Position numbers and translations under genes: made by a program | The notes under the pieces: generated by a model | What the model saw: only the letters and a program-made list of their open reading frames with translations | Told to the model about the DNA's origin: nothing | The model's database searches: none | Shown here: positions 1 through 10,744 of the stretch, piece after piece | How the letters are laid out: every line of letters begins with the position of its first letter | How positions within the stretch are numbered: position 1 is the stretch's first letter | Assembly: GCA_030427635.1 (NCBI GenBank) | Contig: JAUIBA010000017.1 | Location: 231 to 64,230, forward strand | From: Bacteroidia bacterium | Lineage (GTDB): Bacteria > Bacteroidota > Bacteroidia > Chitinophagales > Chitinophagaceae | DNA length: 64,000 bases | Direction: 5' to 3'

Positions 1-69
1 GCGATGCGGGATGGCTTGCGCCTTATGCCCGTACCAGTGAAGCTGGTGTTTTGTTATGCCCGTGCGCTG

Positions 70-93
70 GTTGCAGGCGGGGACGCCTGCAAC
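70..93. repeat. Perfect 10-bp hairpin with GGGA (GNRA) loop, REP-like palindrome
   Basis: GTTGCAGGCG-GGGA-CGCCTGCAAC read directly from the sequence. The REP-like status is inference. Confidence 0.5.
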
Positions 94-96
94 GGC

Positions 97-140
97 GAAA
101 AAACGCCAAAACGCTTAATAGTGTTGCGTTTTGGCGTTTT
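97..140 (-). terminator. Intrinsic terminator-like hairpin downstream of the degenerate ssrA 3' copy
   Basis: 15-bp perfect stem AAAACGCCAAAACGC (100-114) / GCGTTTTGGCGTTTT (126-140). The A-run on the left gives a U-tract on the minus strand. Confidence 0.7.
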
Positions 141-143
141 AGT

Positions 144-168
144 TGTGGAGTCGGCGGGGATAAGTCGA
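144..168 (-). repeat. Degenerate copy of the ssrA 3' end (old att site)
   Basis: TGTGGAGTCGGCGGG-GATA-AGTCGAAC versus ssrA TGTGGAGCCGGCGGG-AGTCGAAC (10377-10399): one substitution plus a 4-nt insertion. Confidence 0.75.
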
Positions 169-240
169 ACTTTCATGTAAAGGATTTGGATTTGTTTCTC
201 AACTAGCAGTGAGAGTTATCCAGTGTTACCAAAACTCTAT

Positions 241-963
241 TTACGATGTACGACAATTGATGCATGCCAATTCCGGTGTGCTACGAACTTCATCTAAAAA
301 CAAAAAATAACCGCCTGAAGCTTTGTTTAAAGGACGTTCGGTTTTAAAGGAATAGTACCTATCATCGACTCCAGTAATTGTAACAGGAATAGCTTTTCGT
401 CCATCCCATGACACCCACGCTCTATCTCCAGGAACAAATTCCTCTACTGTTCTTTTACTAAAATGAATCGATGTCACATTCTTGACATACACAATTTTTC
501 GCTCGTCATAGTTTTTCCGACTAGGCTTTTTCGGAGTCGTGGTATCTTTAGTTGGGTTTTCTTTTGTCTTCAAATAAGCCTTATACCTTTTCCACGCCCT
601 ATTCAGCGTCTCTATCGCACCATAGTAGGCGTTTTGAAACCTTAGATAACTACGATATTCATCCAGCGAATTGTATGTCGGCCAACTCTTATCTCTACTC
701 ATATCTCTAGCCAAATCGCCCAAAGGAGAATCCCTATTTGAATGCCTTTTTAGCCAATCAGTAAAACTCAGTTCTACAGGAGTGCTAACCGTTTCGGTGC
801 TATCATTTATTTTGCTAAGTGACCGTTGGCAGTGCATCCAATTAGAAAAACCGAAAGATTTAGACACTATGTCAAGTGCTTCTGCATGGCTGATACCACG
901 CTCCCTTTTTATTTTCTTTGCCTGACGCTTAACGTAAGCTATAGTGTGTTGATGACTTTTCAT
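241..963 (-). CDS. YozE SAM-like domain fusion protein (N-terminal helical domain, YozE-like middle, possible SH3-like C-terminus), 240 aa from ATG 963; ORF open to 1071
   Basis: SFTDWLKRHSNRDSPLGDLARDMSRDKSWP resembles YozE family motifs. The N-terminus KRQAKKIKRERGISHAEALDIVSKSFGFSNW resembles the helical domain Pfam calls Glyoxalase_8. Confidence 0.65.
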   Translation of the reverse strand: MKSHQHTIAYVKRQAKKIKRERGISHAEALDIVSKSFGFSNWMHCQRSLSKINDSTETVSTPVELSFTDWLKRHSNRDSPLGDLARDMSRDKSWPTYNSLDEYRSYLRFQNAYYGAIETLNRAWKRYKAYLKTKENPTKDTTTPKKPSRKNYDERKIVYVKNVTSIHFSKRTVEEFVPGDRAWVSWDGRKAIPVTITGVDDRYYSFKTERPLNKASGGYFLFLDEVRSTPELACINCRTS

Positions 964-1127
964 TGAAAAATCTTTTAACTCACAAGAAAAAATGTCGCTC
1001 ACCAACCACCCTCTCAATGTGAGAAAAGTTTTTTCAATTATATGAAGAACAGTACTGATACAGCTTTGCAACGGTGAGCGGCAGGCTTCTGCTAAACCTC
1101 TACTAAAGTTAGCAAATTTGTCAAAAT

Positions 1128-1163
1128 AAAAAAACCGGAAACATCAGTTCGATGTTCCCGGTT
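1128..1163 (-). terminator. Intrinsic terminator downstream of the displaced ssrA 3' copy
   Basis: AACCGGAAACATC-AGTTC-GATGTTCCCGGTT stem (one G-U pair on the minus strand) followed by a U-tract. Confidence 0.75.
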
Positions 1164-1165
1164 GA

Positions 1166-1183
1166 TGTGGAGCCGGCGGGAGT
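1166..1183 (-). repeat. Distal att core of the 9.2 kb element (duplicated ssrA 3' end)
   Basis: TGTGGAGCCGGCGGGAGT is identical to 10377-10394. Confidence 0.92.
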
Positions 1184-1241
1184 AGCGCAAAAATAGCTGT
1201 ATCGCTTTGCAGTCGTGTGTTTCAAGATTCACGTAGTTTTT

Positions 1242-1252
1242 GGGTATCAAAA
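1242..1252 (+). promoter_or_regulatory. Candidate integrase arm-type binding site GGGTATCAAAA (distal end)
   Basis: The same 11-mer occurs twice in tandem at 10267-10288 near the other att site. Confidence 0.65.
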
Positions 1253-1273
1253 TAGTAGACAAAAACAAAGCAG

Positions 1274-1513
1274 CTACTCTCTAAAAAAGTTAGGGATATC
1301 TGGTCGTTTAAGGTATTTCGCTAAGAATGCAATTGTTTCCGTATTGGGTACTTTGCCTTTTCGTTTTTTGCCTGGCATAGTCTTTATCGGCTGTGCTACA
1401 GGTGGTGCTATAGGTGTCGCTACATGTGCATTTTGTAGCAAAGTTATTATGGTATCAAGCTTTCTATTTTGTTCGGTGAGTAGCTGTATAACAGTTTTTT
1501 CATCTGGCTTCAT
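1274..1513 (-). CDS. Hypothetical protein, 79 aa (N-terminal coiled coil, basic C-terminus)
   Basis: ATG-start ORF co-oriented with the element's accessory genes. No family recognised. Confidence 0.6.
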   Translation of the reverse strand: MKPDEKTVIQLLTEQNRKLDTIITLLQNAHVATPIAPPVAQPIKTMPGKKRKGKVPNTETIAFLAKYLKRPDIPNFFRE

Positions 1514-1536
1514 GCATACAAATGTACCTGCTACAT

Positions 1537-1974
1537 TTATATGACTTTTGTAAAGTAACTGCGAAAATCAGGATTGTAAACAGTTGTAGCTTTGCCCGTT
1601 CTTACGCACTCTGTATAATTTTTTTTGCAGTAGCCTGTTTCATTGGCTCTTGCTTCAATTTCATATTTATTGCCATCATAGCCATGAAGGAGGCTTTCAA
1701 TGAGGTAATTGAAATAGTACCGAGCTAATCCTTCACGTTGGTATTGCTCCCAGTGGATAAGCTCATGATGTAGTAGTGCGGTGTTGTCCTTTTCTTTCTC
1801 ATTTACCACAATGCCGAAAGGAGGTAATGTATTGGCATTATAGCCGCCTGATTTGTTCCTTTTTATATAAATGGTAGGGGCTTGATTTTTATTTTTCTCA
1901 TTGATGACAAGAACAAAAAACACTACCACTACCACTATTGATATTAAAAATAGAAATGCAACAATGTTTTTCAT
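1537..1974 (-). CDS. Membrane-anchored HExxH zinc metallopeptidase-like protein (DUF4157/zincin-like)
   Basis: N-terminal hydrophobic helix IVAFLFLISIVVVVVFFVLVI, LLHHELIHWEQ motif and downstream NKYEIEAR. ATG 1974 lies 8 nt after the upstream stop; the ORF is open to a GTG at 1998. Confidence 0.7.
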   Translation of the reverse strand: MKNIVAFLFLISIVVVVVFFVLVINEKNKNQAPTIYIKRNKSGGYNANTLPPFGIVVNEKEKDNTALLHHELIHWEQYQREGLARYYFNYLIESLLHGYDGNKYEIEARANETGYCKKNYTECVRTGKATTVYNPDFRSYFTKVI

Positions 1975-1981
1975 AGTATAT

Positions 1982-2242
1982 CTACCAATAGTAGCCACAG
2001 TTTTTTACCAATTTTAAATCTTCCGGTGTACGAGGAAATATGATACAATTGCCCGGCCTGTAACTGTATATTGTACATTTTGATTGCTCCGATAACATAG
2101 GGCACTGACCACCAAGCTTACAACATGCACCGCCTTTTTCTCCAGACAGAGTTTCACACCGATCGGGAATACACTCGCCTTTCCGACCAGGTGTAATGCC
2201 TTTGAAAGAGTTGACAAACCTTGCTATTTTATTCGATGCCAT
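1982..2242 (-). CDS. Eight-cysteine YkgJ/CxxCxxCC-like (Zn or Fe-S chelating) protein
   Basis: C-x4-C...CC...CPML...CTIYSYRPGNCIIFP...C pattern. Start at ATG 2242 or 2254. Confidence 0.7.
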   Translation of the reverse strand: MASNKIARFVNSFKGITPGRKGECIPDRCETLSGEKGGACCKLGGQCPMLSEQSKCTIYSYRPGNCIIFPRTPEDLKLVKNCGYYW

Positions 2243-2339
2243 TTTTAAAATCATTTGAAGCTTTATCGACCAGGTATTGCATATACTCTCTGTGAAGAAA
2301 GTATATGACTGCCGCTATTATTATGATGTATTTTAGCAT
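2229..2339 (-). CDS. 36-aa single-TM micropeptide (below the ORF track cut-off)
   Basis: Manual translation MLKYIIIIAAVIYFLHREYMQYLVDKASNDFKNGIE*. It overlaps the start of the downstream cysteine-rich gene. Confidence 0.5.
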   Translation of the reverse strand: MLKYIIIIAAVIYFLHREYMQYLVDKASNDFKNGIE

Positions 2340-2375
2340 ACCGTTATTCCATTTTTGATTATTCTTTTCAAAGCA

Positions 2376-2403
2376 CAATACCCCTGCAATGGCAGGAGTA
2401 TTG
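2376..2403 (-). terminator. Hairpin downstream of the 227-aa gene
   Basis: CAATAC-C-CCTGC-AATG-GCAGG-A-GTATTG stem with one mismatch. Confidence 0.4.
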
Positions 2404-2417
2404 TGCATGTTATTGGG

Positions 2418-3101
2418 TTATTTCTTAGTTGTTTCCTTTTCAGTTTCGGTTACTGGTGTATCCACAATCTTGTAACTGCTGAAAATGCTGGCGGTGTCAA
2501 TGATGTTTGACTGTGCGCCGTTAGCTTCCCTTTCATTCAGTGCAAGGGCTTTCATTGTTGCTTTGAATTTTGAGTGCTTCATGCCTGTAGTAGGCTCAAA
2601 TACCTCTGTGTCTGCCATATGAAAGCTGTAATGAAACAACACTTCACAAATAGAGTTTTCAAGCGGTGCAAGTCCTTTGGTAATTCTGCGCTCGTTCATC
2701 TGTTTTACCAAGTCTGTTACTTCTGAGTTGGTTTTGAATACCAATGTGCCGGGTTCTATTGGCGTTTCTGCATCGTCTTCCAGTGCCGGACCTTTAGCCA
2801 CATTGTAAATGCGCAATGCTTCCAAAACTGCATCATAGGAAAGCCCCTTTATAAGTTCCTGAGCATCATCTGAAATGTCCGAGATAGTACCATCTGCTAA
2901 CAGCTCTGAATTTGTGGCTTTCTGCACAAGGTCGAGGCAAAGAGCGCCAACACTGATGTTTTTTTCATTGGATAAGATAACGAGCTGATTAAACAGGTCA
3001 ACCGGTATTTGTACCGGAATGGTGTACGGTGGCAACGGAACTGCTGGTATAGCAGAGCCGGGAGTAGTGCCGGGCTGTGGGGCGGTAATTGTGTTTTCCA
3101 T
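2418..3101 (-). CDS. Hypothetical protein, 227 aa, with a possible N-terminal ribbon-helix-helix motif
   Basis: IPVQIPVDLFNQLVILSNEKNISVGALCLDLVQKA fits an RHH strand-helix-helix pattern. TACTTTTG promoter element just upstream (3118-3125). Confidence 0.7.
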   Translation of the reverse strand: MENTITAPQPGTTPGSAIPAVPLPPYTIPVQIPVDLFNQLVILSNEKNISVGALCLDLVQKATNSELLADGTISDISDDAQELIKGLSYDAVLEALRIYNVAKGPALEDDAETPIEPGTLVFKTNSEVTDLVKQMNERRITKGLAPLENSICEVLFHYSFHMADTEVFEPTTGMKHSKFKATMKALALNEREANGAQSNIIDTASIFSSYKIVDTPVTETEKETTKK

Positions 3102-3117
3102 TGTATTGATTTTTTAT

Positions 3118-3125
3118 CAAAAGTA
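3118..3125 (-). promoter_or_regulatory. Bacteroidota -7 promoter element (TACTTTTG) for the accessory module
   Basis: Matches TAnnTTTG, 17 nt upstream of ATG 3101. Confidence 0.6.
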
Positions 3126-3256
3126 CTGGCGTGGCAAGCCGACAACAATAGACCTCAGAAAACTACAGTCTATACGGGTTGTGTTTGTAGGATTTGACGA
3201 ATATCATATGCACTCTAAGCATCTCAAAAATGTCACCGGGAAAGCCTTGTTTTCGG

Positions 3257-3640
3257 CTGCAACCCTGCAACTCCGCAACCATAATGTATAAAAGATTGAT
3301 TTCGATGTCTTTAATGGTTGCAGTTGTTTGTTGCAGTAGTCGCAGCGAACTGCAACTACTGCAACCGGATATACTGTATAGGCCCGGCAATGTCCGGGCC
3401 TTTTTCGTCTCCATGTCCGGTACAGTTATATATTTCTGTAGCTGTAGCTACAGTCTTTTTGTGCTGTAGTGCCTGCCATACAGCCAGTTATTACTATGCT
3501 GCAGCCAACAATTCTTTTTTAAAATCAAATGGTTGCAGTTAAAACCCGAACTGCAACCAACTGCAACTACTTGCAAACGATATAAAATATTGATTTTCAA
3601 TGATAATGTAATGTAAGGTTGCAGAGTTGCAAGGTTGCAA
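3257..3640. repeat. Iteron cluster, putative replication origin of the element
   Basis: 15 copies of a (C/T)TGCAAC(C/T)-like 8-mer in both orientations. Two AT-rich cores are each flanked by convergent iteron triplets. It lies directly downstream of the primase-helicase gene. Confidence 0.75.
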
Positions 3641-3693
3641 TACACTTTTCTATTTTTTGATTTTTTGCATTTTCATTGAAATGGATTGAGCAT

Positions 3694-3721
3694 AAAAAAG
3701 AGCCTGCGATGTACAGGCTCT
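3694..3721 (-). terminator. Terminator after the primase-helicase gene
   Basis: AAAAAAGAGCCTG-CGATGTA-CAGGCTCT gives a stem plus U-tract on the minus strand. Confidence 0.65.
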
Positions 3722-3742
3722 AACAACAAGATTGTGGTGTTA

Positions 3743-6502
3743 TCATACGGTACCATATACCCCGGTTCTTTGCATTTCAATGTTCAAAGCTTTGTAGTCA
3801 AATCGCCAAACTCGTTTTTTCAGGTCTTTGTCATATGGTGTGAACTCAGAGCCCTTTTGAGTTGATCTTATAGTAAATGGTTTGTTCTTTAAGAATGCTT
3901 TCAATGAAGCCTTTCCTGTTGGCGGCATTCGTTGCTTAATGCACTGCTCTGCATATTTGTTATAGACATTCTCAAACACAAAAGAAAACACCTCTACACC
4001 GGTTGCATCTATCTTGATGTGGTAGTCATAACCTTCTTTTATTTTAAAATCCGATGATAGATACTCAAGCGTTTTGAAGAAGGTTTGTATTTCGTTTGTT
4101 TCCTTCATGGCTTCATTTTGGGCATTAGCGGCAGCAATAAGAACACCTATCATTTCTTCAACGTTGATATGAAAATTCAAATGTGCTTTCAGTATGCGAA
4201 TAGGGGCTATAAGTAGTGCAATGTGTTCAATAGTTCTATCGGCCAACCCTAAATTTTTGCAACGCTCATTTTTCAGGTAGTGGATCGCCTTCCGATAAGT
4301 GTTGCCAAACTCTGCTGACATTAGTTGCCTATGCCGGGCGATCTCTACAAATATTTGTCCAAAGCCACTTTCGGCAGCATCCTTCAATATGTCTTTTGCA
4401 ACCTGTTGCTGGGTAGTAAAGTCTGTTTTTTCAAAGGTTATAGTAATTGTACGGCTGAACAATGCACTGTTTTTTTCAGGAAGCTCGTTACCATCAATAA
4501 AAATACCGCTGAATACTCCGGTCTGGTGCGTTTTGTTGTCATTGCTTGTCTGGGCCCTGTCATAGCCTACACCCTCATAGCCGGTCTTTAATAGTCCTAT
4601 TGTGGAGCTATCAACGTCATTGTTGGTATATTCCTTAATGTAGGTAAGTGCATTCTTAAATTGCGAGATTCTCCGTGCTATGCTCTTTGAAGTACTATCG
4701 TTGCTTATGCCGATACCTGGTTGCGGATTACCAAAAACAGACAAATGCAGATCAGTGAATGTAGTCTTACCGCTACCAGCTTCGCCAAACAAAAACAGGT
4801 ATGGAAATGAGGCACGTTCGGCAAAAATAATGTCCCTGAAAATTGCTGCAATAAGGTATGCATTGCCTATCGCACCATTAACGCCATATGCAGCTACCAT
4901 ATGCTTGTTATAGTCTGCAAATGAAAGGCTTCCGGGCTTGTAGATGAACTTTCTTTCATTCAGGTAAGATGTATCTTCTTTGGTAAGCTCACTAAGCGCC
5001 GGGAGGTAATAGCTGTTATCGTTACATGACACTATGCCCATCTTGTTAGCTGGTATGAAAGTAAATGTACCATCTATTATCCCATTGCTGTAGGCGTATA
5101 TATTATGCTCAGCTTGCCATCCGAGACATGCAATTTTGTGTGCTTTACTATATTGTGTGTTGTGATATTCAATTATCTTATCTAACTGTGCCTGGTTGCC
5201 AGAAAAGGAGTATCTACCTTTTGACATGATTGCGGGTTTAAATGCCGATACTGAATTGAGGTCTTTTGCAGTTAATTCTATCTGTGCAAGCTCTCCGGTA
5301 TTGCTTTGTATTTTTATATACCACTTGGCATTGTTAGAGCCATCAGGAAAGAAGTATAGAAACTCCATGATAAAGTTAGAAATGCGCTCTGCATGTGTTT
5401 TGGTCTTATACTGCTTGGTAGTGTAGTAGCAGCCATCCTTATAGTAGAATTCATTCTTTGCAAGAAACTCGTCTGCGTTTTCGCAATCTGGATTTATGGG
5501 CTTTTTAAAGTCGTCAATCTGACCTGTTCCTTCTCTATGGTTTGTTTGGGCTGTTTTTTGTTCATTTTTATGCAGTTTTTGAACTGCTTTTAAAGGTCTT
5601 TTGGTGTCAATTCCATAATCTTTACAAGCCTGAAAAAATGAAGCAAGCTGCACCTTGTTTTTGCCATTTCCTTTGAGGCAGTTAGTGTATTGAGCATTGG
5701 TTTCATCGGTATTGTACCCACTATAGAATATGCTGACCCGGTGATAGTAATCCCTTCCGGTCTCTCCGAAACCATCTGCAATTGCAAAGCCAATTTTCAC
5801 CCAATCGGCATAAGAGCCGGTAATGTCTATCCTGTTGCGCTCTATTTGTTGCAGACAGTTTTCTATATCTGTGGATTTGTCAGTAGTGGGGTAATTCGGT
5901 GCTCTGGGTGGTGTTTTCTTTTGGGGTGTGGCCGCTACAGTTATTTTGGTATATACTGCAGAGTTCTGATTGATGAATATTTCCGGGTCGTAGCTTAGGA
6001 AACAGAGCCGGGTAACATCTTTAGTGGCACGGTCTATTTTTATTTGATACTTACTGAGGTAATAGCTTTCTACTGCTAAAAATGCAGCCAAATGACTCTC
6101 TTTATCTGATGGGATTTTTACTATTAGCTTTAGCTTGTCTGATGGTGAGCTAAAACAGGCAAAAGTATATTTGTCGTTTTGCAGTGTCTTCCGGAGTTCA
6201 GCATAGCTTGCCACATCTGGCGGTAGCTCATCAATATCTATTTGAAGTAAACCGGAGTGAGAAAGGAATTTATCATTAATTCTATGTTGGTCGAATGTGC
6301 CGGACAATGTAACCTTTGGTAAGCCCTTCTTTAGTTTGCTGATGGTGTTTTTGTCGGTCTCTTTGCGTATCCGGGTAATAGTATCAGAATAGCTGATTCC
6401 CTGTATTAAACCCGTTCGGATTGCAGTAATGAGCTCACTTACGGGGACGTCACCTGCAACTGTATTCAAATTAGTATAATAACTTATTAATGGGTCGTGC
6501 AT
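3743..6502 (-). CDS. Primase-helicase: VirE N-terminal/BT4734-like domain, PriCT-2 domain and C-terminal P-loop helicase
   Basis: KLKKGLPKVTLSGTF...SGLLQIDID (VirE_N-like), SYADWVKIGFAIADGFGETGRDYYHRVS (PriCT-2) and Walker A FGEAGSGKTT. ATG 6502, with an upstream TTG at 6517. Confidence 0.85.
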   Translation of the reverse strand: MHDPLISYYTNLNTVAGDVPVSELITAIRTGLIQGISYSDTITRIRKETDKNTISKLKKGLPKVTLSGTFDQHRINDKFLSHSGLLQIDIDELPPDVASYAELRKTLQNDKYTFACFSSPSDKLKLIVKIPSDKESHLAAFLAVESYYLSKYQIKIDRATKDVTRLCFLSYDPEIFINQNSAVYTKITVAATPQKKTPPRAPNYPTTDKSTDIENCLQQIERNRIDITGSYADWVKIGFAIADGFGETGRDYYHRVSIFYSGYNTDETNAQYTNCLKGNGKNKVQLASFFQACKDYGIDTKRPLKAVQKLHKNEQKTAQTNHREGTGQIDDFKKPINPDCENADEFLAKNEFYYKDGCYYTTKQYKTKTHAERISNFIMEFLYFFPDGSNNAKWYIKIQSNTGELAQIELTAKDLNSVSAFKPAIMSKGRYSFSGNQAQLDKIIEYHNTQYSKAHKIACLGWQAEHNIYAYSNGIIDGTFTFIPANKMGIVSCNDNSYYLPALSELTKEDTSYLNERKFIYKPGSLSFADYNKHMVAAYGVNGAIGNAYLIAAIFRDIIFAERASFPYLFLFGEAGSGKTTFTDLHLSVFGNPQPGIGISNDSTSKSIARRISQFKNALTYIKEYTNNDVDSSTIGLLKTGYEGVGYDRAQTSNDNKTHQTGVFSGIFIDGNELPEKNSALFSRTITITFEKTDFTTQQQVAKDILKDAAESGFGQIFVEIARHRQLMSAEFGNTYRKAIHYLKNERCKNLGLADRTIEHIALLIAPIRILKAHLNFHINVEEMIGVLIAAANAQNEAMKETNEIQTFFKTLEYLSSDFKIKEGYDYHIKIDATGVEVFSFVFENVYNKYAEQCIKQRMPPTGKASLKAFLKNKPFTIRSTQKGSEFTPYDKDLKKRVWRFDYKALNIEMQRTGVYGTV

Positions 6503-6589
6503 TCTATGGGTTGTCAATTATTATAAAGCTATGGTTGTGAAATCTTGACAGCAATAGAGCGTGAATATTTGGTGTGTATTTACATGTTG

Positions 6590-6883
6590 TTATCGTCTTT
6601 TCCTTTCTACAAGTCGGTATAAATCTGTTCGAACGTTCTTCCCTTTTTTTCCTTTGATAATTTGTAAGTCGTATTTGTCAGATCGTACAAATACGACCAT
6701 ATCTGCCAATGCTGCTCTGATGGTATTTTGAGTACAGGAAAAGTCTGTGTCAAGAAATCTTGCATGTATTTCGGCTGCTGATAAGTACTCACCATTAGCA
6801 TGCTCAGTAAGCAGCAAAAAGACTGCATACCGGAGCTGCCCGGGGAATGTTGTTTTTTTGCTTCTTTGTGCCTCAATTCGCAT
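6590..6883 (-). CDS. Small winged-helix-like DNA-binding protein, 97 aa
   Basis: YAVFLLLTEHANGEYLSAAEIHARF...QNTIRAALADMV followed by a basic wing ending in LYRL. The fold is inferred. Confidence 0.6.
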   Translation of the reverse strand: MRIEAQRSKKTTFPGQLRYAVFLLLTEHANGEYLSAAEIHARFLDTDFSCTQNTIRAALADMVVFVRSDKYDLQIIKGKKGKNVRTDLYRLVERKRR

Positions 6884-7041
6884 TGGTAGCGGTTTTTAGA
6901 GTTTTTGGGAACTGTTTTCAGCTATTTTTCAGCCGTTTTTAGATTTTTTTTGAGGCTTTTTTGAGATATGCAAAGAGCCTCAAAAATGATAGGGTTATAG
7001 TTACTAACCTAACCTAAGCCGATAGGGCTATAGGTTCACAA

Positions 7042-7557
7042 CTAATTTGCAATTGGCTGCATTGCTTTCTTTCCATGCCTTACAACTACCTGTGTCATTA
7101 ACTTAACATTGCAGAGCATACTTATTATTTGCGCCAGTTGGACATAGATCAACCCCCGATCATCCAATGACAAGAAATAGTCTGTAGCATCGGTTGCCCA
7201 ACTCATAATTTCTGTATCGGTAAACATCCATAGAATGTCTTTCAGATCGGCACCTATGGTGATATCCTCGAAGTCAGCAATTCTGATATCCTGATTGAGG
7301 TTCATTGTTGCTTCCAATATCAGAGAAAACAACAGCGCTCCCTTAGCTGCCGGCATTGGATTATCTACAGGCGTAGATTGTATTGCATTTTGTAATATTC
7401 CTCTTATGTTTTCAGTGAGCTGCCGTCTGATTTCCCTCAATGTGAACTCCCCGAATATCTCCCTGAATACACTCCCTATTTTTTCTGTATCAGCATACTC
7501 CATATCAAACCCGGAGAGTGAGGTTGTTTTGTGTGCTACATCAATTGAATTTGACAT
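7042..7557 (-). CDS. Hypothetical helical protein, 171 aa, with an internal duplication
   Basis: IGSVFREIFGEFTLREI versus IGADLKDILWMFTDTEI. AT-rich leader typical of Bacteroidota starts. Confidence 0.7.
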   Translation of the reverse strand: MSNSIDVAHKTTSLSGFDMEYADTEKIGSVFREIFGEFTLREIRRQLTENIRGILQNAIQSTPVDNPMPAAKGALLFSLILEATMNLNQDIRIADFEDITIGADLKDILWMFTDTEIMSWATDATDYFLSLDDRGLIYVQLAQIISMLCNVKLMTQVVVRHGKKAMQPIAN

Positions 7558-7773
7558 ATCTTTGTTTTGTTTGAGATTATTAAAAAGGTTGGTTGACCGC
7601 CAGGGCTATTTTGATTATTTCAAGCCGTCCCTGCAAGGACGTACAAGATCAAATTCGTAGGCGACTGTTTAGGTCGCCTATACTTTTTCTAACTGCTATC
7701 AAATACAGGCAATATGATCTGTCTTTGCCGGTACCAGTAAATGAGCCGGGCTGCAGTACAGTTACTTTTGTAT

Positions 7774-7998
7774 TTACTGGCCATGGGATTGCATGATTGG
7801 GTTAACAGTTTTTATTACTGATGGCTGCTGTGTCAACTCACGCAATAGCACAAACGCCTCTTTTCGGGTCAATGCCTCCAGATCACTGACACGGCCGCTA
7901 CTTGCCCGCCGTATTTTCTTTAGCATTTCTCTTTCAGGCACAAATAGTGATAGTGCTTCTATTATTGCTTTCTGCCGATCTCTAATGAGGACTACCAT
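7774..7998 (-). CDS. Hypothetical protein, 74 aa
   Basis: Start overlaps the stop of the excisionase-like gene (TAATG coupling at 7998). Confidence 0.6.
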   Translation of the reverse strand: MVVLIRDRQKAIIEALSLFVPEREMLKKIRRASSGRVSDLEALTRKEAFVLLRELTQQPSVIKTVNPIMQSHGQ

Positions 7999-8285
7999 TA
8001 TGCAGCAGTTTCAACCGGTGATTCAATGAGTTTTTTCAGTTCGGCGGCTGCATAATAGGTACGACCATTATCCAGTTTTAAGCGAGTAATTTTACCCGAT
8101 TTTACCATTTTCCATATCATTCCCCGAGTACATCCCATATAGGTGCAGGCTTCAAGTGTCGTCAAATACTCCTTGTTCAAATTGTTTTGAGTATCTAAAC
8201 GCTCGATTCTTTTTTCAATTCGTAACAAAGTCATCAGAATTGTGGCGTTGTCAACGCTTTTTTTGCACTGGTCTTGTTTATTCAT
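7998..8285 (-). CDS. Excisionase-like helix-turn-helix protein (HTH_17/MerR-like)
   Basis: KEYLTTLEACTYMGCTRGMIWKMVKSGKITRLKLDNGRTYYAAAELKKLIE. Divergent from the repressor. Confidence 0.85.
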   Translation of the reverse strand: MNKQDQCKKSVDNATILMTLLRIEKRIERLDTQNNLNKEYLTTLEACTYMGCTRGMIWKMVKSGKITRLKLDNGRTYYAAAELKKLIESPVETAA

Positions 8286-8329
8286 AAATTGTTACTTTTA
8301 TGTCAGGTGTACAATATTATGTAAATATA

Positions 8330-8365
8330 CGTACAAAAGTATGCAAATGTGCAATCTTTTGTACG
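8330..8365. promoter_or_regulatory. Inverted repeat (candidate operator) overlapping the TACTTTTG promoter of the xis-like operon
   Basis: CGTACAAAAG (8330-8339), 16 nt spacer, CTTTTGTACG (8356-8365). The -7 element is at 8334-8341 on the minus strand. Confidence 0.6.
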
Positions 8366-8381
8366 CATTCTTTTTGTTAAA

Positions 8382-8960
8382 ATGGATATTGGGAAAAGAA
8401 TAAAAGAAATTGTTGAGAGAAAAGGAATGAAAATGGAGCATGTATATAACTCCATTGAAATGACCAATGCCGGTTTCTACCGGATGCTGAAAAACAATTC
8501 TTTTAAGGTAAGTACTTTGATAAAAATTGCTGATTTGCTGGAAGTTCCAATCGAGGCATTCTTTTCTGATGAAGCAGATGAATTGCGAGATAAATTAGTA
8601 GGTATAATACAGGCTACAAAGGATATAGAATGGGGGATTAGACTTTGGAGTTTATGTGGCCATTCTGCTATTGAAAAGCTTGAAAAGATACTACAACAGG
8701 ACCCCCGAAATGGTAAAGAAATTCAGGAAATAATTGAATTAATAAAGAAAACGGAAGTAAACAGCAATAAGTGGCTATATAGGCATTTTACCGATGAGCA
8801 AATGAAAGCAAAAGATGCTCTCGAAAATGACTGGACAAACATTGTTAAAAAGCATATAGATGCTAATTATGCAACAGAAGAAGAGTTAACACAAGCTCTT
8901 CAAACTGATATGTGGGAAATAGTTGAAAAATATATTCTTGTATTTGACAGAAAAAAATAG
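8382..8960 (+). CDS. XRE/Cro-C1 HTH repressor with a helical C-terminal domain
   Basis: MDIGKRIKEIVERKGMKMEHVYNSIEMTNAGFYRMLKNNSFKVSTLIKIADLLEVPIEAFF is an HTH_XRE pattern. No S24 peptidase motif is visible. Confidence 0.85.
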   Translation: MDIGKRIKEIVERKGMKMEHVYNSIEMTNAGFYRMLKNNSFKVSTLIKIADLLEVPIEAFFSDEADELRDKLVGIIQATKDIEWGIRLWSLCGHSAIEKLEKILQQDPRNGKEIQEIIELIKKTEVNSNKWLYRHFTDEQMKAKDALENDWTNIVKKHIDANYATEEELTQALQTDMWEIVEKYILVFDRKK

Positions 8961-8968
8961 CCTTTACA

Positions 8969-10186
8969 CTATATCCAGTCTGTAATTTTCTTCAAATGCT
9001 CCTTTACCTTATCGCTCCCAACATGAATGTAAATCATTGTCGTTTCGACCTTGCTATGCTGTAGCAGCTCCTGCACTATGGGCAATGGTACACGCCATAC
9101 CAGGTAAGTGGCAAAGGTGTGCCTACCCACATGATTAGTTAATTTGGTTTGTACTCCAGCCATAGCTTGTATTTCTTTCAGTTGCCTGTTTACATATTGG
9201 TTGTTTGCGCTGCTTGTCTGCTGGGTTTTCAGCGATAGAAAGAAGGGGTGCTTATCATCACGCCAATACTTCTTAATGAGCCGCTCCGGGCGGCTCTGCC
9301 TGCCTTTGTCTCTGAACAGGTAGGCAAGCGGCAAATTGACGGTCTTGTTTTCCTTCTCTGATATCATACGTACCTCAATACCCTCATTGGTTTTGTGTAC
9401 ATGCTCTTTGCTGAGCCGGGAGGCATCGCTAAACCTCAATCCGGTATAGCATTGCAGTAGAAACAAATCCCTGATTACTTCAAGGTGCTGCTGTGCCGGC
9501 ACAAACTTTAATCCTTCGAGGCTTTTCAGTTCTTTATCTGTGAGGCTATACCGGGTAGTTTTATCTGCTATTATTTTTTTATCAGGGAATGGGTTTTTAT
9601 TATGCTCGAGCAAACCATGCCTCACAGCAAGCCTTGCATATTTTGCAAGTGTTTTAAAGTACAGTTTCCTTGTGCTGGGGATTAAACCTTCACTGATCAG
9701 ATAGTAATCGAAATCATCAATCAGTTTATTGTTGAGTTGCGCAAACGTTACGCCGGTTTTTGAGAACTCGTGAAAGGTGTTGATAGTTTTTTTATACTTT
9801 ACCTGTGTAGCTGCTGACAGGTTCTTTTGCTTCTCAATCTGCGCCAGTGTAAATGAAATAAAGCTCTCCCCGGCTGCAAGATTCTCCATTGCATTTTTGA
9901 GATCATAAACAGAAAAATCGGGGTTTGTTCTGTTGCGTTTATGTTCAATGTCTTTGCATTGTTCAATGAACTGAATTACCCTGTTATTGAGATCGTAGCT
10001 ATCCGGGTGCTTTATCACCATGCATTTGCTGTTATCCCAACTTGCCGGCTTTACATAAATGCCAGTACTGAAATATACTCTTGCTGCATCCTTGTACGCT
10101 TCAATTTGTATCAGACCGGTACCGTCTTTGTTGAGCTGTTTTTTGCGGTTATATACCGGTGTATAGCGGATTGCCTTTTTACTCAT
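8969..10186 (-). CDS. Tyrosine integrase (arm-binding, SAM-like and catalytic domains)
   Basis: Catalytic motifs YTGLRFSD, HVGRHTFAT and LQHSKVETTMIY. Adjacent to ssrA. Confidence 0.95.
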   Translation of the reverse strand: MSKKAIRYTPVYNRKKQLNKDGTGLIQIEAYKDAARVYFSTGIYVKPASWDNSKCMVIKHPDSYDLNNRVIQFIEQCKDIEHKRNRTNPDFSVYDLKNAMENLAAGESFISFTLAQIEKQKNLSAATQVKYKKTINTFHEFSKTGVTFAQLNNKLIDDFDYYLISEGLIPSTRKLYFKTLAKYARLAVRHGLLEHNKNPFPDKKIIADKTTRYSLTDKELKSLEGLKFVPAQQHLEVIRDLFLLQCYTGLRFSDASRLSKEHVHKTNEGIEVRMISEKENKTVNLPLAYLFRDKGRQSRPERLIKKYWRDDKHPFFLSLKTQQTSSANNQYVNRQLKEIQAMAGVQTKLTNHVGRHTFATYLVWRVPLPIVQELLQHSKVETTMIYIHVGSDKVKEHLKKITDWI

Positions 10187-10266
10187 GGCAGCGAAACTAC
10201 CCGGGAGTAATGGCCTGACATATAGAAGGGATTTTTTTACCCTCTATTCTGCAATTCAAAAAAAAC

Positions 10267-10288
10267 GGGTATCAAAAGGGTATCAAAA
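10267..10288 (+). promoter_or_regulatory. Tandem candidate integrase arm-type sites (2 x GGGTATCAAAA)
   Basis: Exact tandem 11-mers about 90-110 bp inside the ssrA-side att site. A third copy is at 1242-1252. Confidence 0.65.
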
Positions 10289-10320
10289 GAAAGTAAACAC
10301 CATAGAACTCATAAAAACAC

Positions 10321-10345
10321 AAAACCCCTGATTGTCAGGGGTTTT
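10321..10345 (-). terminator. Element-supplied terminator for ssrA
   Basis: AAAACCCCTGA-TTG-TCAGGGGTTTT palindrome about 30 nt downstream of the tmRNA 3' end. Confidence 0.75.
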
Positions 10346-10378
10346 GTACAAAAAGTGAACGTTAAAAAACAACGTCTG

Positions 10379-10744
10379 TGGAGCCGGCGGGAGTCGAACC
10401 CGCGTCCAAACATTTGCCCGATATGCTTTCTACATGTGTATTACGGCATTAATTGTGGGGAGGTGGCCGGAGCCGCACAAACCTACTACCTCCTTACCTG
10501 CTGAAGTTTTCATCCTGTACACGCAGTGGGCACAGGCCTATCCGGTTATTGTTTGATTCGGCGGCGGGGACGGCAACTGGCAGCCTTCCCGGCGGCTATA
10601 AAGGGTGTCTAATCTCTGATTAGGCAGCCATGGCGTAAGAATATTCGCCTTCTATTGGTTGGGTATTCAGATTAACGTGCTAATTACACAACGCACGACA
10701 TGCTTACACACCCTGCAGAAATGCTGTCAAAACCGGTCGGCCCC
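10379..10744 (-). ncRNA. ssrA: tmRNA; tag peptide GEYSYAMAA encoded at 10620-10649
   Basis: 5' end GGGGCCGACCGGTTTTGACAGC, 3' end GGGTTCGACTCCCGCCGGCTCCA, alanine-type acceptor stem with a G-U pair, and an internal tag ORF ending YAMAA-TAA. Confidence 0.97.

Follow-up and report, generated by a model that had tools for sequence, protein, structure and literature searches.

Probable family of small integrase-less cassettes at the 3′ ends of ssrA and tRNA-Ala(GGC) genes in Chitinophagaceae-like Bacteroidota

Near the left edge of the window, by which we mean the whole 64,000-nucleotide stretch of DNA analysed here, the tmRNA gene ssrA is followed on the minus strand by a 9.2 kb integrase-bearing island (island 1) and then by a short unit with one cargo gene (Table 1). 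The ssrA-encoded tag reads GEYSYAMAA, and the CCA end is not encoded. On the plus strand, the 18-mer TGTGGAGCCGGCGGGAGT has exact copies at 10377-10394 and 1166-1183 and a copy with 3 mismatches at 144-161; when up to 3 mismatches are allowed, the window contains these 3 matches and each of 100 shuffles contains 0. In a gapped alignment to ssrA, 144-170 matches 23 nt (TGTGGAG[T]CGGCGGG-GATA-AGTCGAAC) and shows the one substitution and 4-nt insertion that the initial annotation had described. That annotation also reported three tmRNA 3′-end copies (10377, 1166 and 144), each with a hairpin of its own, unrelated to the others, and both the exact or near matches and the folding energies bear this out. 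The minus-strand hairpins 3′ of the three copies are mutually unrelated in sequence, with energies of -21.7 (95-145), -19.5 (1125-1166) and -26.4 kcal/mol (10315-10377) and z-scores from -5.6 to -7.3. All three copies read CTCCACA.

Table 1. Features of the ssrA locus in the window
Feature	Position	Strand	Basis or remark
Dispersed REP-like repeat	46-103		GC-rich hairpin at 70-93; left flank common to the window and L043
Terminator-like hairpin after the right end	100-140	minus	Absent from the island-free relative
Third copy of the tmRNA 3′ end	144-170		Contained in the cassette right end, 144-190
Cassette right end TCCAAATCCTTTACATGAAAGTTCGACTTATCCCCGCCGACTCCACA	144-190	minus	Conserved family end motif
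Cargo gene, 240 aa, YozE-SAM-like	241-963	minus	Starts at M37 of the long ORF
Structured 5′ leader RNA of the YozE-like gene	961-1110	minus	Extends to the AUG; covariation
Cassette left end, terminator hairpin AACCGGGAACATCGAACTGATGTTTCCGGTT then T run	1133-1163	minus	Terminator scan, folding, family conservation
Core copy 2	1166-1183		Displaced ssrA 3′ end and ssrA-proximal cassette junction
9.2 kb integrase island (island 1)	1184-10376	minus	ssrA 3′ end regenerated by the island
GGGTATCAAAA exact repeats, both ends of island 1	1242, 10267, 10278		
Primase-helicase	3743-6517		Island 1
Tyrosine integrase, lambda-type with arm-binding domain	8969-10186		Island 1
HTH_17 gene			Within island 1
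Core copy 1	10377-10394		Functional ssrA 3′ end and ssrA-proximal att site of the 9.2 kb island
ssrA (tmRNA gene)	10376-10744	minus	ARAGORN; Rfam RF00023, 126 bits

The initial annotation proposed that 144-1183 is a separate att-bounded accessory unit that stood at ssrA before the 9.2 kb island arrived, and named as a check whether relatives carry 144-1165 as fixed sequence downstream of ssrA. We reached a near-identical relative (L043/L044) through run X10, in which half of the ssrA-flank words and none of those from 1-1300 are present, and then through the protein cluster of the neighbouring lipoprotein. This relative has an ssrA identical to the window's and flanks that are ~97% identical (~2.6% of positions differ), and in place of window 101-10376 it has 261 unrelated nucleotides between ssrA and the REP-like repeat. 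The stretch is thus not fixed downstream of ssrA, and window 101-10376 is accessory throughout. Together with the junction in L002 described below, this absence upholds the proposed separate unit and its arrival ahead of the island.

The REP-like repeat of L043 matches window 1-100 at about 90% identity. One Logan contig begins at window 71, L044 too terminates inside the repeat, and the assemblies of the window strain and its relative probably break within it. The same repeat lies on at least 7 other contigs of the source runs, in both orientations and at the genome's depth. Because the 43 nt that follow the right end (101-143) are unlike the terminator native to ssrA in L043, the locus must have seen one or more further events. 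The 261 nt of L043 (9230-9490; L044 30-290) contain an open frame of ~90 codons extending into the 3′ end of ssrA; this frame has no match in Pfam or NCBIfam and may be the remnant of another element. The tmRNA CCA end is encoded in island-free L043 (9491-9495, CTCCACCA) and not in the island-regenerated ssrA of the window (10376-10380, CTCCACAG). A search for excision or empty-site joints over window 1-12500 in contigs of the window-strain runs X1 and X2, both from a biofloc metagenome, with contigs from four runs compared, returned none, and neither an excised circle nor an attP form of the unit was seen.

The left boundary of the unit recurs at other loci. The junction of CTCCAC and hairpin at 1166-1172 equals that of ssrA and hairpin in L002 and that of tRNA-Ala and hairpin in L006, L003 and L165. 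Directly 3′ of ssrA, L002 reads CTCCAC-TTTA-ACCGGGAACATCGAACTGATGTCTCCGGTTTTTT (the hairpin of window 1163-1133), followed by the leader and then a YozE-like homologue; it is 75% identical to the window's unit over 954 nt, and its PurH is 77% identical. Because ssrA is joined there directly to hairpin, leader and gene, copy 1166 is the old ssrA end, pushed 9.2 kb away by island 1. In L006, a Chitinophagaceae MAG, the window's unit lies behind tRNA-Ala(GGC) at 89% identity over 995 nt, with the homology beginning at the CTCCAC of the tRNA gene and stopping at window 181. Further homologues immediately follow tRNA-Ala(GGC) in L003/L004/L005/L007, and the one in L165 follows a pseudo-tRNA-Ala copy.

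Both ends of these units follow a common pattern. On the left, CTCCAC is followed by 4 nt, the hairpin ACCGGRAACATCGAAYTGATGTYTCCGG and a T run in the window, L002, L003-L007, L006, L165 and L082. On the right, the consensus is CTCCAAATCCTCAACA-NN-AAAGTTCGAC-(A/T)TAT-N2-3-CCGCC-N1-3-CTCCAC, found in window 190-144, L002, L003/L007 unit 1, L165 and L082, and the window's 47-nt motif is kept in six other places; right ends are degraded or truncated in L002, L007 unit 2 (degraded) and L006 (truncated). The units span 1-3.6 kb, carry 1-3 cargo genes and no integrase, and often stand in tandem. Some 7 units were seen, most of them through the YozE-like gene, so the apparent order in which the YozE-like gene comes first reflects ascertainment. 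Two other classes were considered and rejected: an integron cassette, as there is no attC imperfect palindrome and no IntI or attI, the ends being a terminator hairpin and a pseudo-tDNA motif and the one integrase nearby a lambda-type enzyme with an arm-binding domain; and an IS or MITE, as there are no terminal inverted repeats with a target-site duplication, the left and right ends being unrelated and the repeat direct and made of target-gene sequence.

This pattern changes how the copy at 144 is read. Its substitution and 4-nt insertion might be taken as decay of an ssrA-end duplicate, an interpretation that finds no support, as an AT-rich insert between GTTCGAC and CCGCC is present in 5 of 5 untruncated right ends that carry the segment, tRNA-Ala units included. 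By comparison with these ends, copy 144 is evidently a conserved family right end and not a decayed duplicate. Nor is the suggestion supported that the unit stems from an older element related to island 1, as the two share the core only and the cassette's ends belong to a different recurrent family. The initial annotation had further pointed to a candidate arm site at 224-234, where TGTTACCAAAA does match GGGTATCAAAA at 8/11 positions; the match itself stands, at chance level (202 such matches in the window against ~172 expected) and unconserved in the cassette family, and on these two grounds we dropped the site. Against Rfam, the cassette ends gave no match at E<=10.

Tandem arrays show what follows a right end. 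In L003/L007, unit 1 holds the YozE-like gene and a gene of 313 aa, and its right end is followed immediately by a second hairpin and unit 2, which a second right-end motif closes. L082 has a pseudo-end, hairpin, lipocalin-like gene and right end, then a terminator resembling the one native to ssrA in L043. What lies past the right end in L165 is another copy of the terminator found behind the intact tRNA-Ala. The arrangements in L165, L082 and L003 are those expected if the sequence past the right end is displaced host sequence, as it would seem to be.

Several of these loci have further content. Unit 2 of the tRNA-Ala array (L003 12010-15456, equal to L007 unit 2) encodes both partners of a known defence pair, IetA (E 9e-77) and IetS (E 4e-34). 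PADLOC returned nothing for the second gene of L003/L165 (313/291 aa) or the 173-aa product in L082. At L165 9311-9790, an intact tRNA-Ala(GGC) and its terminator come first, then a small ORF, then another tRNA-Ala copy whose anticodon loop contains an insert of ~20 nt, with the cassette behind this copy; the small ORF between the tRNA-Ala copies, read by eye, is a GIY-YIG-like candidate.

We looked for a recombinase that could belong to the units. No integrase was called within 10 kb of the cassette loci in L002, L003, L165, L168 and L171, no unit of the family contains an integrase fragment, and none of the about 180 loci fetched has an integrase-bearing element with the cassette family's ends. 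A scan of viral contigs for the right-end motif gave no match. In a metagenome scan with a 17-mer hairpin pattern, L082 was the sole true family member among the matches listed, the others being almost all chance.

The cargo gene is intact, and its dN/dS values of 0.28 (against L006), 0.18 and 0.12 indicate purifying selection. Its protein has about 190 detectable homologues and is modelled as a helical N-terminal domain, a YozE SAM-like domain and a C-terminal Tudor/SH3-like barrel; a fold search returned domain-level resemblances alone, to YozE/MW0776 and to Tudor-like barrels at E>0.008, and PADLOC returned nothing for it. A maximum-likelihood protein tree groups the six hairpin-linked genes in a single clade (87/90), in which the window gene (ssrA) pairs with that of L006 (tRNA-Ala) at 100/99 and that of L002 (ssrA) is nested among tRNA-Ala copies. 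As the tree mixes ssrA and tRNA-Ala copies, the target gene has changed at least 2 times. Homologues in other genera are mostly not near a tRNA. In L180 (1000-1060)/L181 (1-160), a 63% homologue has no left hairpin, and ~150 nt downstream lies the apparent 3′ half of a different tRNA (..GTTCGAATCTCTTCTTCCGCAC), which suggests that the gene may also be carried by another type of tDNA-linked element.

Upstream of the cargo gene we found a structured leader. A covariance model built from 23 copies gave 29 matches in 894 kb, every one of them ending at the gene's start codon and one of them an outlier in an Acidobacteria-labelled MAG. Helix P1, formed by CGCUCACC and GGUGAGCG, is paired in 99% of cells, with double-sided changes in 7/8 pairs; over the whole structure, 17/25 pairs show double-sided changes, against 7.3 +/- 1.7 in shuffles and 4-7 in slid controls. 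Two helices cross P1, one of CUCACA with UGUGAG and the other of AUUGAAAAA with UUUUUCAAU, the second of which takes in the AUG. Their strands pair better with their own partners than with those of other sequences (-12.4 against -10.2 and -6.9 against -4.7 kcal/mol), and 0 of 20,000 permutations reach the observed values. From this covariation and pairing, the leader looks like a two-state switch that would hide or free the start codon. Searched against Rfam 15, 961-1110 gave no match even at E<=10, and across the whole window the tmRNA alone reached an Rfam gathering threshold. A leader of ~150 nt is common to all full-length homologues and has the same place in L002-L038, L165, L168 and L171. 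It is a candidate new cis-regulatory RNA across Bacteroidota and offers a way of approaching the function of the protein family.

Island 1, which now separates the cassette from ssrA, has nothing in common with it outside the core. Its closest examined counterpart is an 8.9 kb island at ssrA in L178 (NCBI assembly GCA_030426665.1, 9795-18729), with the same core and an integrase 82% identical. No cassette was found at L178, which has the closest relative of the island 1 integrase examined, and the viral-contig relatives of that integrase are all too distant for use. The L178 island has TTCTGATACCC repeats near both ends, and its far-end repeat, AGTTCCGCCGGCTCCACA, narrows the crossover of that island to the last 14 nt. 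The arrival of island 1 in front of an older cassette is an ordinary type of event, and the evidence neither implicates nor excludes its integrase as the mover of the cassette.

These comparisons demonstrate where the unit begins and ends, that a close relative lacks it, that two target genes are occupied, that units stand in tandem arrays and that the cassette preceded the island. We consider 144-1183 to be probably a member of a family of small att-bounded cassettes, without an integrase of their own, that insert behind either ssrA or tRNA-Ala(GGC) in Chitinophagaceae-like Bacteroidota. Such a unit begins right behind CTCCAC with its own terminator hairpin, which would end the tRNA or tmRNA transcript, and closes with the ~47-nt right end, the last part of which mimics, with an interruption, the T-arm and acceptor end of tmRNA (GTTCGAC, an AT-rich insert, then CCGCC..CTCCAC). 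Weighing against this reading are the lack of excision products in the contigs of X1 and X2, the small number of units, the degraded or truncated right ends, the 43 nt at 101-143 and the many cargo homologues that lie away from any tRNA. We infer that the units move by site-specific recombination of the tyrosine-recombinase type, with the integrase presumably supplied in trans, whether by a co-resident element or from another part of the genome, much as for a cis-mobilizable element (CIME) in an accretion array. We compared the junctions, with a slash marking the boundary: attB of L043 (GGTTCGACTCCCGCCGGCTCCAC/CACC), the ssrA-proximal junction, and the right ends of the window (AGTTCGACTTATCCCCGCCGACTCCAC/AACT) and L003 (..CCGCCCTTCTCCAC/TTCA). 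By this comparison the exchange would fall between the AT-rich insert and where CTCCAC ends, and its simplest position is CTCCAC(A) itself, which has a normal overlap length for a tyrosine recombinase. The segment is common to ssrA and tRNA-Ala because tmRNA bears the alanine identity elements G3:U70 and A73, and sharing it would explain the dual target. The attP form carried by such a mobiliser would read ..CCAAATCC..AAAGTTCGAC-TAT-CCGCC..CTCCAC/TTYA-ACCGGRAACATCG.

A one-gene unit at the other target in L006, together with the lack of a called integrase within 10 kb of the loci examined, favours a minimal cassette moved in trans over the alternative that the initial annotation had set beside it, reduction to one gene. 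In the latter account, a larger integrase-bearing ssrA island was deleted in place down to a single, now immobile gene, which we regard as unlikely. Islands at tDNA often decay, which is the textbook route to CIMEs (PMC5704250), gene content varies from 1 to 3 genes among family members, and the truncated or degraded ends in L006, L002 and L007 unit 2 also fit decaying remnants. However, deletion in place does not lead one to expect the L006 unit, whose single gene has the same left boundary and 3′ UTR at a different target gene, nor ends that are kept across genera and differing cargo; no unit retains an integrase fragment, and selection is purifying on the cargo gene as well as on its leader.

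The cassette might instead depend specifically on the integrase of island 1, acting in trans or moving both elements as a 10.2 kb composite. The core CCCGCCG-CTCCACA is common to the two, and their adjacency is the accretion arrangement (PMC5704250), yet the ends are unrelated outside the core and the GGGTATCAAAA arm repeats are missing from the cassette family. In addition, L178 has the related integrase at ssrA without a cassette, five cassette loci have no integrase within 10 kb, and the tRNA-Ala cassettes lack the island's 18-nt core, so that we hold this dependence to be quite improbable. That there is no island at all, 144-1165 being ancestral chromosome downstream of ssrA and copy 144 a chance resemblance, draws on the more distant L002 (PurH 77% identical), which likewise has the gene directly behind ssrA, and on a cargo protein divergence (68% identity) similar in order to that of housekeeping genes. 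Against it, the stretch is missing in the close relative L043, copy 144 beats all shuffles and lies in a motif kept elsewhere, and the gene tree mixes ssrA and tRNA-Ala locations; we consider this account very improbable indeed.

If the units are indeed trans-mobilised cassettes, a bolder and rather doubtful extension is that they form a dedicated gene-capture system on the alanine-identity end (CTCCAC), in which an unlinked recombinase would shuffle self-terminating, self-promoted cassettes, each closed by an interrupted pseudo-tmRNA end, into arrays, integron-like within Chitinophagaceae, and in which the YozE-like cassette would carry a new riboswitch-like translational switch. The cargo of the cassettes in this scheme comprises IetAS, the lipocalin-like gene and the YozE-like gene. 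Irrespective of that extension, ends are now defined for a recurrent family of very small non-autonomous units that integrase-demanding island finders discard. One family occupies both ssrA and tRNA-Ala, probably by way of the short shared CTCCAC that goes with alanine charging, and defence systems (IetAS) are carried by such integrase-less units.

Integron gene cassettes are short, promoter-poor or single-gene units with no recombinase of their own, arrayed at one site and bearing defence genes among other cargo. The cassette family resembles them in its short recombinase-less units stacked at one site and in its defence cargo, but it has no IntI, attI or attC, its ends imitate the 3′ end of a tRNA or tmRNA, and each of its units brings a terminator and apparently also a promoter of its own. 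CIMEs and accretion arrays, such as those of ICESt1/ICESt3-related elements in Streptococcus thermophilus, likewise have attL/attR-like bounds and no integration or transfer genes (PMC5704250), and our unit too keeps an attL and an attR without such genes. It differs in having no known parent ICE or IME that shares its ends, in the very small size of the units (1-3.6 kb) and their two target genes, in family-specific, conserved ends with a built-in terminator, and in a neighbouring island that is of an unrelated family and not conjugative.

Tandem islands also lie downstream of ssrA in Dehalococcoides, each bounded by an ssrA 3′-end repeat; some of them have no integration module and were suggested by the authors to be CIMEs (PMC3146451). 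The tandem row, a conserved non-ssrA motif beside the repeat and the occurrence of units without an integration module are shared with the cassettes, whereas the Dehalococcoides islands are larger and use the serine recombinase DsiB with insertion at the T-loop, in contrast to a crossover that would lie at the acceptor end, CTCCAC, and a target range that includes tRNA-Ala. Islander catalogues tyrosine-integrase tDNA islands, for which ssrA is the most favoured target (PMC4383910). As in such islands, the element regenerates its target gene and a displaced 3′ fragment marks the far end. Set against the Islander criteria, the unit lies at the 3′ end of a regenerated tmRNA gene, from which island 1 now parts it; a displaced target fragment in the same orientation stands at its far end (144-170), mostly as element-type sequence conserved in the family; and it is missing from the close relatives L043/L044. 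An integrase of its own is the feature it lacks, the sole ORF in the unit being the YozE-like gene, which has no recombinase domain. Because Islander requires an integrase for each island of a tandem array (PMC4383910), cassette-like units are filtered out by design. Tandem ssrA islands and integrase-less att-bounded units are both already known, and the cassette extends this known pattern.
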